29,495 nt of DNA from a virus (Duplodnaviria; Caudoviricetes): IMG/VR virus record IMGVR_UViG_3300009095_000055, positions 1 to 29,495 of that record, one strand, 5' to 3'. Of the stretch, positions 3,146 through 28,418 are shown piece by piece. The first letter of the stretch is position 1, and each line of letters begins with the position of its first letter. Both the position numbers and the translations under genes were made by a program. The notes under the pieces were generated by a model that ran no database searches, was not told where the DNA came from, and was given only the letters and a program-made list of their open reading frames with translations.

Positions 3146-3514
3146 TTAAAGTTCAATTTCAATCGGAATGATAGAATCATCATCGGCAGACCTTACTTGG
3201 AAGGACAATGAATACAAACGAGTACTAGAATCGATAAATGATTGGAATTCCACTAACTGCAATACTTCAGGTTCAGAGATGATTGCTCGTTTAAGGATTA
3301 AATCAATAGATTCTTTTGACCTATTCTTTCCAAAGATACTCTGAAAATATGGTATCCCTTCATTTAGATTTAGATACCACTCACCCATGAAAGTAAGAAG
3401 TTTAATGGTTAGTCTTTGCTGTAATGATTCAGATTGTGTGAGTGTTAATGCGAAATCCCCATTTTCAAACTGAATATCATGATTTGCTAAATCTAATTTT
3501 AAGTCTGTTGTCAT
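3146..3514 (-). CDS. Baseplate wedge / sheath initiator (gp25/W-like)
   Basis: QRLTIKLLTFMGEWYLN..EGIPY motif; lies between spike and baseplate J. Confidence 0.8.
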   Translation of the reverse strand: MTTDLKLDLANHDIQFENGDFALTLTQSESLQQRLTIKLLTFMGEWYLNLNEGIPYFQSIFGKNRSKESIDLILKRAIISEPEVLQLVEFQSFIDSSTRLYSLSFQVRSADDDSIIPIEIEL

Positions 3515-4351: not shown

Positions 4352-5293
4352 TCATACTTCCTGACCAGATAACTTGGAACAATGACAAACCACATACCAG
4401 CTATTACCTCGCCAATCACCATGGAATTCGGTTGTATTTACCCTATAAATACCGGTTATTGTCGTATCTTTAATAGACACTGCTGAACCCGGTCTAATAG
4501 ATGGATTAAGAAGTGCTTTAAATTTAACACCTTTCTTTTTCGTGTCATCATCCTTAACCTTCTTACCATCACCAGAAGTCTTACTAGGAACACCAATCAA
4601 TCCCGTTAATGGTGAAATCACAAAAGCTTTAGAAACACTATTGGGAGATTCATATTTATTGTGATCACTCACATATAATCTCTTACCATCAATTCTATAT
4701 TGTAATTCGTAATCCCTAGTAATCTCATTAAGTATAGATTTAATATCACCTTGGATTGGATAACCAAATGAAAACTTCTCATCAATACGATCACTGTTGA
4801 ATGAAGCTCTAGCGATAGTTCCTGATTGAGAAACAAGATAATTAATAACTTGTCTAGGAGTTGACCCAGCAGGGAATGTCTTTGAGATGGTAGGTTGATA
4901 TGTCAATGAATCAGAAGGAACACATTTTAATGTTGTTTTCTTATCCTGTCTTCCATTTCGAATATCTGTCTCAAGCTCAGAAACAATACCTCTAAAAATC
5001 TCAATATTATTTACACCCTGATTAGAAGTACCTTTATAACCCACCTTGAGGATAATCGCTATATTATCTTTATCAATTGCTTTTATTGTATCTTCAGATA
5101 AGTTATAAAGGTCAATGGTACAACTGTTTCCCTTCTCTTTATTATCAATGTTCTTTTTTATTCTAAAAGTAATCTGCAAACCCTGATTCAAATCTTCATC
5201 GCCAACAATACTGATTGCTTTACTAGATCCAATTTCACCGATGATAATTTCATATGTTCTTTTAAATTGTAGATTATTTTGGTCATCAGCCAT
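4352..5293 (-). CDS. Baseplate hub protein
   Basis: IDLYNLS, LKVGY, TGLIGVP, LLNPSIRPG and GDWRGNSW motifs typical of myovirus hub proteins; gene order. Confidence 0.82.
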   Translation of the reverse strand: MADDQNNLQFKRTYEIIIGEIGSSKAISIVGDEDLNQGLQITFRIKKNIDNKEKGNSCTIDLYNLSEDTIKAIDKDNIAIILKVGYKGTSNQGVNNIEIFRGIVSELETDIRNGRQDKKTTLKCVPSDSLTYQPTISKTFPAGSTPRQVINYLVSQSGTIARASFNSDRIDEKFSFGYPIQGDIKSILNEITRDYELQYRIDGKRLYVSDHNKYESPNSVSKAFVISPLTGLIGVPSKTSGDGKKVKDDDTKKKGVKFKALLNPSIRPGSAVSIKDTTITGIYRVNTTEFHGDWRGNSWYVVCHCSKLSGQEV

Positions 5294-5642: not shown

Positions 5643-6425
5643 TTAATTAAATAAATCAGAAATTGCAGTATCTAAACCGATACCCTCAAGAATATCTTCA
5701 ATTACATAATTTGTAGATTTCTGTTCAGCATCACTTGTCGCATCACCTCTATCAGATTCACCAGCAGCAGCATCAGTAACATCACCGGAAGCCTCTACTG
5801 GTGCTGATTGAGTAATTTGAACATCAACTTCTTTTAAATATGCAAAACGAACTTGAGATAATGTTAGAGTTACCGACAAAGAATCACCAGTATCAACATC
5901 TTCGATATCATCATAATTTTCAATAAGACAATTCTCAATGAGTTTACTTGAGACTGTCCTACCTGTAGCAATATCCCAATCTTCATCGATAATAGAAATC
6001 AACTCTGATTGGTCCCAAGCACGTTCTAATCTTTCCCTAGCAACCTCATGTGAATATCCTCTAAAATCACTAGAAGTAACACTTGATAAACCTGCACTAC
6101 CTAATACAGATTGAATAGGTTGAGGAAGATAATCAAGTAATTGAGAAGGTGAATTAATCGTAGCACTATCAGCAGGTCGATTATATTCTGAGTCAAGTTG
6201 TGTGAGTAGTGATGGGGATCTTGTTTCAGGTGAATGAAAATCCGCACTACTCACAACAGCCTTGATATTTAGTGTTAAATTATCTTTTGAAATATGGTCA
6301 GTAATATGAGCATAACTACTATCAATAGGATGATTCGAGACATTACTCGATCTTTTCTTGCCATAAGTTTGCACCGCATCAAGATACATTACACTTGAGT
6401 CTTGGAATAGAAGAGCTAACGCCAT
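5643..6425 (-). CDS. Tail tube initiator / Dit-like protein
   Basis: LDAV.....R...V..HPID....ITDH motif; immediately follows tape measure. Confidence 0.7.
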   Translation of the reverse strand: MALALLFQDSSVMYLDAVQTYGKKRSSNVSNHPIDSSYAHITDHISKDNLTLNIKAVVSSADFHSPETRSPSLLTQLDSEYNRPADSATINSPSQLLDYLPQPIQSVLGSAGLSSVTSSDFRGYSHEVARERLERAWDQSELISIIDEDWDIATGRTVSSKLIENCLIENYDDIEDVDTGDSLSVTLTLSQVRFAYLKEVDVQITQSAPVEASGDVTDAAAGESDRGDATSDAEQKSTNYVIEDILEGIGLDTAISDLFN

Positions 6426-22750: not shown

Positions 22751-23638
22751 TCACTCCTCTCTGTTGTTACTTGGTAAAAATACACCTTGTTTTTCATCAT
22801 ATTCACCAGCTTCACTGTCTATTTGCTGGATTTCATCAGGTTCGTGATATGTATTTTTGAAGTAAGTATCTAGAGATTCTTGTGTATCATGCTTCAAAAC
22901 ATGTTGATCGAGTTCCCGTGAATTACTTGGAAGTGTTACATGGATAGTTGGACCTTGATGTTCCTTACTTTTATCAGTCAGAGAAGGATCATAGGGTTTT
23001 GGTTTTGACCACACATAAGAAGCAAGCAATTCTAACGCCTTAATACGTTGTGAATTTTTTATTGGCTCTTTTGTATTAAGCTTGGTTTCGTCACCTTGAG
23101 CCCACGCAATTAATTGTTCAGCGGGGTTAAAGTTTAATCTCTTACTTGCTTTCTCCATCGTCTCAAGGCGGCGCTTTCTTTCTTCCCTAGCTTTGGCAGA
23201 ATTCTTCTTTGCATAATCCTTATCATTCATTGAAGGATTACCTTGTCTCTGTCCTGTGATATTAGAGATGCACACAACAGATTTAAACTTTCTTGACCAG
23301 AAAGCCTTATACTCTCTTGGGATTTTACCAGTACCAGGATTTTTAGGACCACAAGGCTTCTTCTCGACACAGAGCCAAGCTTTTTCATTTGGATGTTGGA
23401 AAAGGTTTTTTCTTTCATACGCTTTTCCTTTTTGCATCCTCCATTTTTCAGCAATCTGTTTAATGGTATCTTCTGTTGTATGAACAATATCTAAACTTAG
23501 GCCATCGACAATGTTCGGATCATCAACATCTGTTGTCCAGTAATGACCTGTTTCCGAAGAAAGAGCAAAATATTTATCTAAATTGTCAGAGGGGTCATTC
23601 CATACGATCCAATATTGATCTTGTAATTCATTTGACAT
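22751..23638 (-). CDS. Probable terminase small subunit with N-terminal extension
   Basis: Directly upstream of terL; central helical region NPAEQLIAWA...RIKALELLASY..SKPK resembles small terminase oligomerisation helices. Confidence 0.6.
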   Translation of the reverse strand: MSNELQDQYWIVWNDPSDNLDKYFALSSETGHYWTTDVDDPNIVDGLSLDIVHTTEDTIKQIAEKWRMQKGKAYERKNLFQHPNEKAWLCVEKKPCGPKNPGTGKIPREYKAFWSRKFKSVVCISNITGQRQGNPSMNDKDYAKKNSAKAREERKRRLETMEKASKRLNFNPAEQLIAWAQGDETKLNTKEPIKNSQRIKALELLASYVWSKPKPYDPSLTDKSKEHQGPTIHVTLPSNSRELDQHVLKHDTQESLDTYFKNTYHEPDEIQQIDSEAGEYDEKQGVFLPSNNREE

Positions 23639-23803
23639 AATTATAACCTGCTAATATAAATGGTGTGCTGGTATGTGTTGGGATTTACACAGTTTATGTA
23701 GGAGATACAATGAACCAGCACAATTCGGAGGGATAAATAATGATAGTTTATTTTTATTACACTGTTAGGAATAAAAGGACTATTTTGGAAGGGAATATAA
23801 ACC

Positions 23804-24313
23804 TTAATATCTTTTGTTAGAAACTACATCAAGGATAGTTGTGTGACTAACGTTATATCTCTTTGATAAAGATCTGGCACCATTTTCTCTACACATGGGT
23901 TTGTATAATGATCTAATGCAATTTACATCATCCTGTGAGAGTTTAGACAAAGGATTGTCACAGCCCTTCCTCGTGTTTATTAGACCATTCTTCAACGCAT
24001 GTTCAGTATTTTCTTTCGAAGTGCACCATTCTAAATTTTTGTAGTAATTATTGGATTTATCACAGTCAACATGATTCACAAAAAGTTTATTCTCAGGGTT
24101 GTCTATGAAAGCTTCTGCAACCCATCTATGAACTTTCTTACAGATATATTTTCCAGATCTTCCACCAATCTTTGAAGAAATAACTTTATAACCTTTTTTA
24201 GTAGTTCCTTGTATAAGGATCTTATTTGTACGTTTTGACCAAACTCTCCCATGATTAGATATCATAAACTCATCAGGATAATCAAAAACATCTTTCCATA
24301 TTTCTTTTTCCAT
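23804..24313 (-). mobile_element. NUMOD4-HNH homing endonuclease
   Basis: EIWKDV..Y...ISNHGRVWS, VHRWVAEAFI.NP, VNHVDCDKSNN...NLEWCT..EN..HA and C-terminal HTH. True start is 24313 (AGGAGA SD); the longer track ORF runs through the tRNA. Confidence 0.93.
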
Positions 24314-24337
24314 ATTTTCTCCTAAAATACTATTTTG

Positions 24338-24410
24338 CCCGCCCACCAGAATTCGAATCTGGACTCTAAGTTTAGAAGACTTATGTGCTATCCAGTTACA
24401 CCATAGGCGG
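24338..24410 (-). tRNA. tRNA-Arg (anticodon UCU)
   Basis: Acceptor CCGCCTA/TGGGCGG; D arm GTGT-AACTGGATA-GCAC with A20; anticodon arm TAAGT-CTTCTAA-ACTTA; T arm CCAGA-TTCGAAT-TCTGG; G73; followed by CAA. Confidence 0.93.
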
Positions 24411-24435
24411 CAGAATAATACTTTCCAATAAGGTG

Positions 24436-24477
24436 CCTCACCGAAACCAAGAGGAGGGAGATATGCAATCGGTGAGG
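24436..24477. ncRNA. Hairpin with anti-SD (minus) / GGA-rich (plus) loop
   Basis: Perfect 9-bp stem CCTCACCGA/TCGGTGAGG around a 24-nt loop containing AAGAGGAGGGAGATATG. Confidence 0.5.
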
Positions 24478-24658
24478 ACTTTTGCTTAATCAAATATCAT
24501 TTTGATTTAATGCGCCCTAGCAGGACGACTTTACACGAACACAAGTGATCATGCTTTATTGAAAGAACCCATCGGAAAAGTTTATGGATTCTCACAATAC
24601 AGAATTTACAAACAAACTTCCAAACACAACTAACTGAATCATATAATCATAAAACATA

Positions 24659-24895
24659 CTATTGACTCCTTAGATTTCCCTTGCCATCATACTTAGATGT
24701 TTGACCATAAAACTTGTCATGTTGTTTCTTGATGGTCTTGTAAGCTTTAGCAATATCAAGTTGTGGTTTATTTTGTTGGGAAGCAATAACATTGCACATT
24801 TGGATAAAACCTGAAGCAATATCCAATTTTTCATTCAAGTTACCAAAATATTGAATATTAACCTTGTTTCCGTTTTTATGGGTAATCTCTTTCAT
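24659..24895 (-). CDS. Hypothetical protein
   Basis: AAGGAG SD and its own consensus promoter. Confidence 0.8.
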   Translation of the reverse strand: MKEITHKNGNKVNIQYFGNLNEKLDIASGFIQMCNVIASQQNKPQLDIAKAYKTIKKQHDKFYGQTSKYDGKGNLRSQ

Positions 24896-24924: not shown

Positions 24925-24953
24925 ATTATATATGACTATCTCAACTATGTCAA
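24925..24953 (-). promoter_or_regulatory. Consensus sigma70 promoter
   Basis: TTGACA-N17-TATAAT exact match. Confidence 0.9.
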
Positions 24954-25310: not shown

Positions 25311-25566
25311 GTGTTTACTTTAACAATTCAACAGTAACGGAATCCTTTCTATTTTGCTCTGTAAGACGTTTTAGGAGCAGACCTGAGTCATTTATCATCC
25401 TAACCTATAAAAACGCTTGCAGACCCCTTACAGGCCGATTTAGGATCATGTACGGAGTGTTCTTTAGGTATCTTTGTATAAGTGCACCATGAGTACACAA
25501 AAACAGGCCCCTACAAAGATCTATCTAGATAGGATTAATAATAATCTAATAATTATATTCTTTATA

Positions 25567-25633
25567 AGATATTAATTCTTACTAGATATTCTATTAAGAT
25601 ATCCAGTCTAGATATCTATACTAGATATTCTTA
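25567..25633. repeat. AGATAT-core short repeat array, 13-bp period
   Basis: AGATAT at 25567, 25584, 25597, 25610 and 25623. Confidence 0.75.
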
Positions 25634-25642
25634 TCTATAACT

Positions 25643-25672
25643 ATTATGAGTACAGAAACACGAAAATGTCAA
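25643..25672 (-). promoter_or_regulatory. Sigma70-like promoter (leftward)
   Basis: TTGACA-N18-CATAAT. Confidence 0.65.
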
Positions 25673-25951: not shown

Positions 25952-26167
25952 ATGAGTAATCAACAATTCTTACAAGAACTTGATAAGGTAAACCAAAAAT
26001 TCAAAGAAATCTATACTTCACATATGTTGAAAATCTATCATCAATTTCTTCATGATGATTTAACACTTGACACCATTGAAGAATTGTGTATGATTATTGG
26101 TGTTAATATCAAAGAAGATTATGAGAATATCATGATTCAACTTGAAGATGAACAGGAGGAACTGTAA
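25952..26167 (+). CDS. Hypothetical acidic early protein
   Basis: AAGGAG SD; first gene after the promoter cluster. Confidence 0.85.
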   Translation: MSNQQFLQELDKVNQKFKEIYTSHMLKIYHQFLHDDLTLDTIEELCMIIGVNIKEDYENIMIQLEDEQEEL

Positions 26168-28108: not shown

Positions 28109-28130
28109 TGGTTATTGGGAGATATTCAAA

Positions 28131-28418
28131 ATGATGAATAAAATTTATGTTGTCAAAGAAAATGGAGGATCTTATGAGGATGTTTACACATACAACATCT
28201 GTGCATTCTCAGAAGAGGATGATGCAAAGAAGTGTATTGATACCATGAGTCGATATAACGAATGGTGGCTAAGTAAAGCACAAAGAATTCTTGATGAATT
28301 TCAACCAAAGATGTACTCTTCAGATACAAAGTATAATCTTTGCTATGATCTTCAGATGGAGATTTATGATAGAGAATGTTGTTACTATACTTATGAGGAA
28401 GTAGAACTCAAGGGGTAA
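28131..28418 (+). CDS. Hypothetical protein (KIYVV...GSYED type)
   Basis: GGGAG SD before ATG 28131. Confidence 0.8.
   Translation: MMNKIYVVKENGGSYEDVYTYNICAFSEEDDAKKCIDTMSRYNEWWLSKAQRILDEFQPKMYSSDTKYNLCYDLQMEIYDRECCYYTYEEVELKG

Follow-up and report, generated by a model that had tools for sequence, protein, structure and literature searches.

Anti-SD loops have precedent as seeds of small RNAs (PMC4615179, PMC8844928). The cuckoo RNAs of Alphaproteobacteria consist of two to four hairpins with variable stems and CCUCCUCCC loops and are co-transcribed as a cluster behind a small ORF; the loops of cuckoo RNAs, RSs0680 (CcsR) and NfeR1 are constant, C/U-rich anti-SD sequences of 9-27 nt (PMC4615179). 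AbcR1 and AbcR2 combine an anti-SD motif in a loop with one between stems and act on many mRNAs (PMC8844928). Among phages, sRNA2 of PAK_P3 is encoded between tRNAs and is abundant late, and the band C and D RNAs of T4 are described as still without function (PMC4933390). The c4 antisense RNA of phages P1 and P7 blocks an RBS through loop pairing (PMC12197685), and the T4 endoribonuclease RegB cuts GGAG in early messages (PMC1702504). A function is known for very few of the small RNAs made by virulent phages (PMC4933390, PMC12197685). We found no prior description of a phage RNA of the kind reported here in the literature as far as it was accessible; a screen of IMG/VR (PMC10690425) may hold motifs of this type, and six supplement files of that paper contained no match to the terms searched for.

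The window, the whole 29,495-nt stretch analysed here, is a fragment, 29.5 kb long, of the genome of an uncultured myovirus. Its minus strand carries the terminase, portal, capsid, sheath, tape measure and baseplate genes while the plus strand from position 25952 onward encodes small proteins without assigned function. No close cultured relative was found, with identities to cultured phages of 45% or less for the large terminase (TerL), 36% or less for the capsid and 39% or less for the sheath protein. Uncultured relatives, two of them complete at 73-77 kb, possess TerL proteins of 78-93% identity (best segment). Searches of viral contigs with the capsid and of genome contigs with the putative small terminase (terS) gave no match.

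The tRNA region of the window and its relatives contains a cluster of hairpins, represented in the window by H1, H2 and element B and in the relatives by A-type hairpins, including a family A2, and element B. Our best reading makes H2 a lineage-specific module within a phage cluster of anti-SD RNAs that is cuckoo- and AbcR-like by anatomy and is not a member of either family. The parallel to cuckoo and AbcR RNAs drawn in the original prediction thus holds for the predicted open anti-SD loop seed and fails for membership by Rfam or sequence: the cuckoo and AbcR/ar15 Rfam models gave no match at E <= 5 in the window, at the gathering score in seven loci or at E <= 1 in five loci. Like the cuckoo RNAs (ar14/RSs0680), the phage cluster displays several variable-stem hairpins, C/U-rich anti-SD loops and a small ORF upstream. 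Unlike them, it is phage-borne and interleaved with tRNAs. Whereas the two to four cuckoo hairpins are adjacent and similar, the phage UCC-loop hairpins, several per leader, differ from one another and have tRNAs or other DNA between them. The H2 loop matches 7 of the 9 letters of CCUCCUCCC, and the loops of H1, A2 and B carry other UCC words with fewer matches. Element B pairs an anti-SD word in a loop with a single-stranded one, as in AbcR1 and AbcR2, and broad RBS pairing is predicted; unlike AbcR/ar15, the phage cluster has no sequence or Rfam homology to that family. The position in a myovirus tRNA region is shared with PAK_P3 sRNA1 and sRNA2 and with the T4 band C and D RNAs, but the published sequences of these RNAs lack the loops by eye, and the seed proposed for PAK_P3 sRNA2 matches tRNA T-loops. 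The predicted pairing of phage RNA loops around an RBS recalls c4, which, unlike H2, has a dedicated target and belongs to temperate phages; no dedicated target was found for H2. RegB would hit GGAG-type SDs and spare others and, being a protein nuclease, offers an analogy of outcome only.

H2 (24436-24477, minus strand) is a non-chance hairpin. Its arms (24436-24444 and 24469-24477) are perfect complements of 9 bp, 6 of them G-C, around a 24-nt pyrimidine-rich loop (24445-24468), as originally described. The sequence also confirms that on the minus strand the loop is the complement of an SD plus AUG, with an anti-SD hexamer (24457-24452) and an anti-AUG (24465-24463) separated by 5 nt within 24452-24465; on the plus strand this reads AGGAGG, 5 nt, ATG. 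No other perfect stem in the window combines at least 9 bp and at least 6 G-C pairs with a loop of up to 30 nt. Stems of this class were found in 6 of 100 dinucleotide shuffles of the whole window and in 0 of 5000 shuffles of 24411-24600. Fold z-scores are -3.75 for the minus and -2.90 for the plus strand. With its flanks, the hairpin is equally stable on both strands (-17.7 versus -17.9 kcal/mol), and because the stem has no G-U pair, H2 alone cannot fix its own strand. Its assignment to the tRNA strand in the original prediction is nevertheless supported. H2 belongs to a conserved non-coding cluster on that strand, the hairpins of which expose UCC words, and a tRNA-Arg(UCU) lies 25 nt downstream on the minus strand. 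The CCUCCU word is predicted to be unpaired with or without the tRNA attached (p = 0.88-1.00) while the anti-AUG is partly paired (predicted p unpaired 0.25, 0.38 and 0.97). In the predicted fold, H2 thus carries the unpaired anti-SD seed of the functional class of anti-SD trans-acting sRNAs. An Rfam search of the window returned only the tRNA plus two chance matches at E 2-5. Exact searches of viral contigs for the H2 stem yielded 26 matches with unrelated loops and 0 homologues. An H2-like hairpin in G001 and G004 was rejected, lying antisense inside a helicase gene.

H2 is embedded in a minus-strand leader with several further elements. A perfect sigma-70 consensus promoter (24925-24953, 12 of 12 letters) would drive the cluster, and motifs resembling sigma-70 promoters were recognized by reading upstream in L004, L048 and L054; a perfect sigma-70 consensus does not speak for late timing of the cluster. 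The promoter is followed by a conserved 78-aa gene that marks the leader start (24659-24895; alignment A2, no PHROG match) and by a hydrophobic small ORF of 21 codons (24592-24657), with similar small ORFs in L048, L054 and L007. H1 (24564-24592), identified by a blastn match to L054 and folding, is located at the stop codon of this ORF and exposes an 11-nt loop bearing UUUUCC. Its fold z-score is -3.98 on the minus versus -2.06 on the plus strand, and one compensatory stem change distinguishes it from the L054 homologue. Three smaller hairpins occupy 24489-24557 in the centroid fold between H1 and H2, and the stretch 24411-24620 folds at z = -3.23. Downstream of H2 are the tRNA-Arg(UCU) (24337-24410) and an HNH endonuclease gene (23804-24313; PHROG 59, E 1.6e-47) that splits the RNA cluster. 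Element B (23664-23735), known from folding and from the relatives, combines a single-stranded CCCUCC with a long bulged stem and UCC/UCCC loops just before a clade-specific gene (22751-23638; alignment A1). The product of this gene, 295 aa long, 57-72% conserved in the clade and without a match in PHROG or among GenBank phages, is putatively an unusual small terminase, judged by its position before the large terminase gene. Elsewhere in the window, an AT-rich, strain-variable tract with TAGATAT-like direct and inverted repeats lies between divergent sigma-70 promoters (25500-25660) and is a candidate origin or packaging site.

A close relative retains H2 next to a different tRNA. This relative, X2/X3, is represented by contigs of two runs from one sample, on which the conservation of H2 rests, and is about 95% related to the window, from which it differs at 35 of 1024 nt and at 30 of 484 nt. 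Both H2 arms are unchanged. The loop carries two changes, at 24458 and 24466, that leave the SD word and the AUG complement intact; two changes do not suffice to prove that the loop is under selection, and their sparing 9 of 24 positions is often expected by chance. In place of the tRNA-Arg and the HNH gene, X2/X3 have 478 other letters (joint 23723-24425); the first 30 resemble a tRNA 5' end, so that a different tRNA would begin 9 nt past the stem. Since the tRNA is exchanged and H2 is intact, H2 is kept independently of tRNA identity. The HNH gene is inserted between the tRNA-Arg and element B, and in X4 a tRNA 3' end abuts 23802 directly. Together with the absence of the HNH gene from X2/X3, this indicates that the tRNA slot is a mobile cassette.

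The same relative bears on the reading of H2 as a plus-strand terminator or as a neutral inverted repeat, the spacer around it being dispensable. The lack of G-U pairs, the equal stability of both strands and the absence of H2 from 12 more distant relatives would agree with it, as would the ACTTTT that the original prediction had pointed out 3' of H2 on the plus strand and that we located at 24478-24483. In X2/X3, however, six bases including the plus-strand T-run are deleted with the stem intact, and the plus-strand mini-ORF MQSVRTFA is reduced to Met-stop. The plus-strand roles of H2 are therefore not kept, and a terminator is disfavoured because X2/X3 lose T-run and mini-ORF yet keep the stem. 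The 24-nt loop also falls outside the definition used by the terminator scan, which gave 0 sites. We consider the terminator or neutral repeat improbable, and these comparisons argue against the caveat attached to the original prediction, that H2 might act only as a plus-strand terminator.

Related clusters are found in the uncultured relatives. The comparison covered 12 distinct leaders, each running from the conserved 78-aa gene to the putative terS. Duplicates (L042-L046, L051-L053, L058-L061 and L090) and the window's own contig (L047) were left out, as were loci without a leader (L001, L003, L008, L009, L050 and L055) and distant or weak matches (L011-L015 and L063). Family A2, present in 8 of the 12 leaders, consists of a 10-19-bp stem around the invariant loop core UUUUCCUG. 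In a hand-set structure of 14 pairs for these 8 sequences, which were picked as hairpins, that is for pairing, and which include the close kin L005, L056 and L057, 90% of cells are paired compared with 30-46% in slid registers. Two-sided changes occur in 10 of the 14 pairs, and the covariation score was reached by 0 of 500 shuffles. G-U pairs, which are mismatches on the opposite strand, make up 21 of 112 cells and fix the tRNA strand for the cluster. A related loop, ACUUUUCCG or UUUUCCG, is found in L007, L049, L054 and the window's H1. H1 scores weakly against the A2 covariance model R1, its 16 bits (E 0.08) equalling the score of a background match. In total, A-type hairpins are present in 10 of the 12 leaders, with none seen in L010 and L062. 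Element B is found in 11 of the 12 (not in L004; the window has a variant) and comprises a CCC-CC single strand, a bulged long stem, a UCC loop and a U-rich tail within about 40 nt of terS. The tRNA strand gives the better fold in 10 of 12 A-type stretches and likewise in 10 of 12 B stretches. Of 167 loops, 35 are UCC loops, compared with 17.2 +/- 4.4 in 50 shuffles (maximum 33). Rfam returned nothing for the cluster hairpins at the gathering score in seven loci or at E <= 1 in five loci.

A-type hairpins follow stop codons or flank tRNAs. Such fixed positions, with B close to the terS start and bearing its U-rich tail and with H2 ending 9 nt before the apparent tRNA start in X2/X3, would be expected if the hairpins were cis-acting parts of the tRNA-terminase leader, serving in processing, in 5'-end stabilisation or, for the long packaging operon, in attenuation or anti-termination, and if the SD-AUG complement of H2 were incidental. 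Yet the stems vary freely while the loop letters are invariant, which points to recognition of the loops, and A-type hairpins stand upstream of the tRNA in some leaders and downstream in others (L048 versus L005 and L057). A purely cis-acting role accordingly seems rather unlikely to us.

H2 itself is the least conserved part of the cluster, and A2 and B are the better experimental leads. It was not among 17 matches of model R1 down to 8 bits, and a comparison with the leaders of the 12 relatives gave no significant match (best p = 0.07); a resemblance to the upstream hairpin of L004 was rejected at this value. The loop conservation sought in relatives is thus present for the SD word and AUG complement in X2/X3 and absent from the 12 more distant leaders. 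MAFFT places the H2 loop on the loop of the A2 family. We read H2 as a lineage-specific module of the cluster's design and not as an A2 family member. Beyond the clade, the best 40 of 106 GenBank phage records matched by blastn with the H2 region match the tRNA only, and the best 40 of 67 matches to the L057 leader are tRNA-like or chance. A pattern search for A2 returned seven loci, one already known and six without a tRNA and with weak scores, and two local pattern searches found nothing. The A2 hairpin is absent from the tRNA regions of two distant cultured phages, PQ492658 (1-40000) and NC_024217 (1-42000), stretches that cover about half of each genome.

The leaders contain further structured RNAs. 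A third recurring motif, a CCUGA...AAA stem-loop without an Rfam match, is located directly after A-type hairpins (L005, about 6205-6232; L056, about 4944-4968; L057, about 4700-4727; L054, about 3331-3358; L010, about 5266-5290). A conserved tRNA-Arg(UCU)-like RNA (L010, 5475-5561; L057, 4479-4563; L062, 1272-1354; L085, about 4478-4566) possesses an acceptor stem, anticodon arm, T-arm and CCA. It lacks a normal D-arm, and its long variable region could fold into a pseudoknot. It was missed by ARAGORN, has only a weak tRNA-Sec match in Rfam (27 bits) and shows a 73% match, unannotated, in Escherichia phage Av-05. L004 contains a tRNA-like RNA of about 220 nt (about 4664-4882) between tRNA-Arg and tRNA-Met. 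This RNA has a terminal stem of 18 bp, includes a T-loop hairpin and ends in CCA; it drew no call from ARAGORN (default) or Rfam. Group I introns, one to three per locus, interrupt or adjoin the large terminase gene in L002, L004, L006, L007, L010, L054 and L062, the first five of which were examined for introns from the terminase start onward; the window's large terminase gene is without one.

The only specific target proposed for H2 does not stand out from background. The original prediction had named the RBS of gene 28131, and the 9-nt match is present (GGGAGATAT at 28117-28125, upstream of the ATG at 28131); target specificity does not follow, as matches occur at the background rate. With start regions taken from a simple purpose-made start caller, complements of at least 9 nt to the H2 loop were found in 1 of 51 start regions of the window versus 10 of 504 in five relatives without H2, a rate of 2% in either case. 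By duplex energy with the H2 loop, gene 28131 comes only fifth, and the X2/X3 change at 24458 breaks the matching 9-mer. The gene 28131 match is a chance match. A real start region of an unrelated virus is complementary to the X2/X3 loop over 22 nt (L080-L083, which count as one independent sequence); a search with one permuted pattern as control gave 0. Four 20-nt loop matches were found in prokaryote genomes, one of them, 23 nt in full, within a coding gene on the opposite strand; because the four belong to unrelated taxa, such matches are seen to arise by chance at database scale. The long database complements, viral and prokaryotic, were judged to be chance and rejected as targets. That H2 is a dedicated antisense RNA for a single message, be it gene 28131 or another phage or host gene, could draw on the 9-nt match and the 22-nt complement with its empty control, and is very improbable given the background rate, the energy rank and the unrelated prokaryotic matches.

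The conserved words of the cluster suggest a more general partner. All conserved single-stranded words complement purine-rich words containing GGA, and U-runs would accept A or G; judged from these sequences, the SD region would be the simplest common partner. A2 loops have no better partners among the start regions of their own genomes than among those of others, which fits broad or host targets. The same complementarity to GGA-containing words, together with an invariant A2 core that complements GGA plus an A run and includes no AUG complement, would suit loops that base-pair with, or titrate, a partner other than mRNA starts. CsrB/RsmZ RNAs form a family of GGA-loop sponges, and RNAs of this type or a pyrimidine-binding protein would be candidate partners. 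The AUG complement of H2 at SD spacing would be needless for sponge binding, and we regard such a partner as unlikely.

Pairing with ribosome-binding sites in general is the mechanism that we tentatively favor, at somewhat less than an even chance: the H2 loop may pair generically with GGAGG/GGGAG-type RBSs and damp initiation on many messages, among which many host or non-structural phage mRNAs would be affected. The structure and position of H2, the strand of the neighbouring elements and the conservation of the cluster are observed. Transcription would start from the sigma-70 promoter at 24953 and run through H1, H2 and the tRNA. RNase P cuts at the tRNA 5' end in tRNA maturation, and here this cut would free an upstream RNA ending 9-25 nt after H2. 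The GC stem would then present the 24-nt loop as a single-stranded seed that nucleates on SD plus AUG and blocks 30S loading. Structural genes would partly escape because they rarely use GGAGG or GGGAG as SD words: in the window, one of these words precedes 1 of 28 genes on the structural strand versus 6 of 17 others. Pooled over four genomes this bias is weak (GGAGG p = 0.06, GGAG p = 0.02; six motifs p 0.01-0.4, uncorrected). A plain 16S anti-SD control gave an equal structural-gene bias, so the bias need not come from the cluster RNAs. It is compatible with a selective escape of virion genes and is no demonstration of it.

As judged from sequence comparison, this cluster of conserved, covarying hairpins beside phage tRNAs appears to be uncatalogued. 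A more far-reaching picture, which we hold to be doubtful, is that the clade consists of lytic phages with a swappable cassette of RNA ribosome-tail mimics in their tRNA operon. H2 would be a newly acquired module of this cassette, clamping a full SD plus start-codon antisense in a stem, and the whole would switch translation by RNA alone, silencing host and non-structural messages led by GGAGG and sparing weak-SD virion genes. If generic pairing with ribosome-binding sites is true, it would give the RNAs of phage tRNA regions a testable role, the takeover of translation by RNA instead of by a nuclease.
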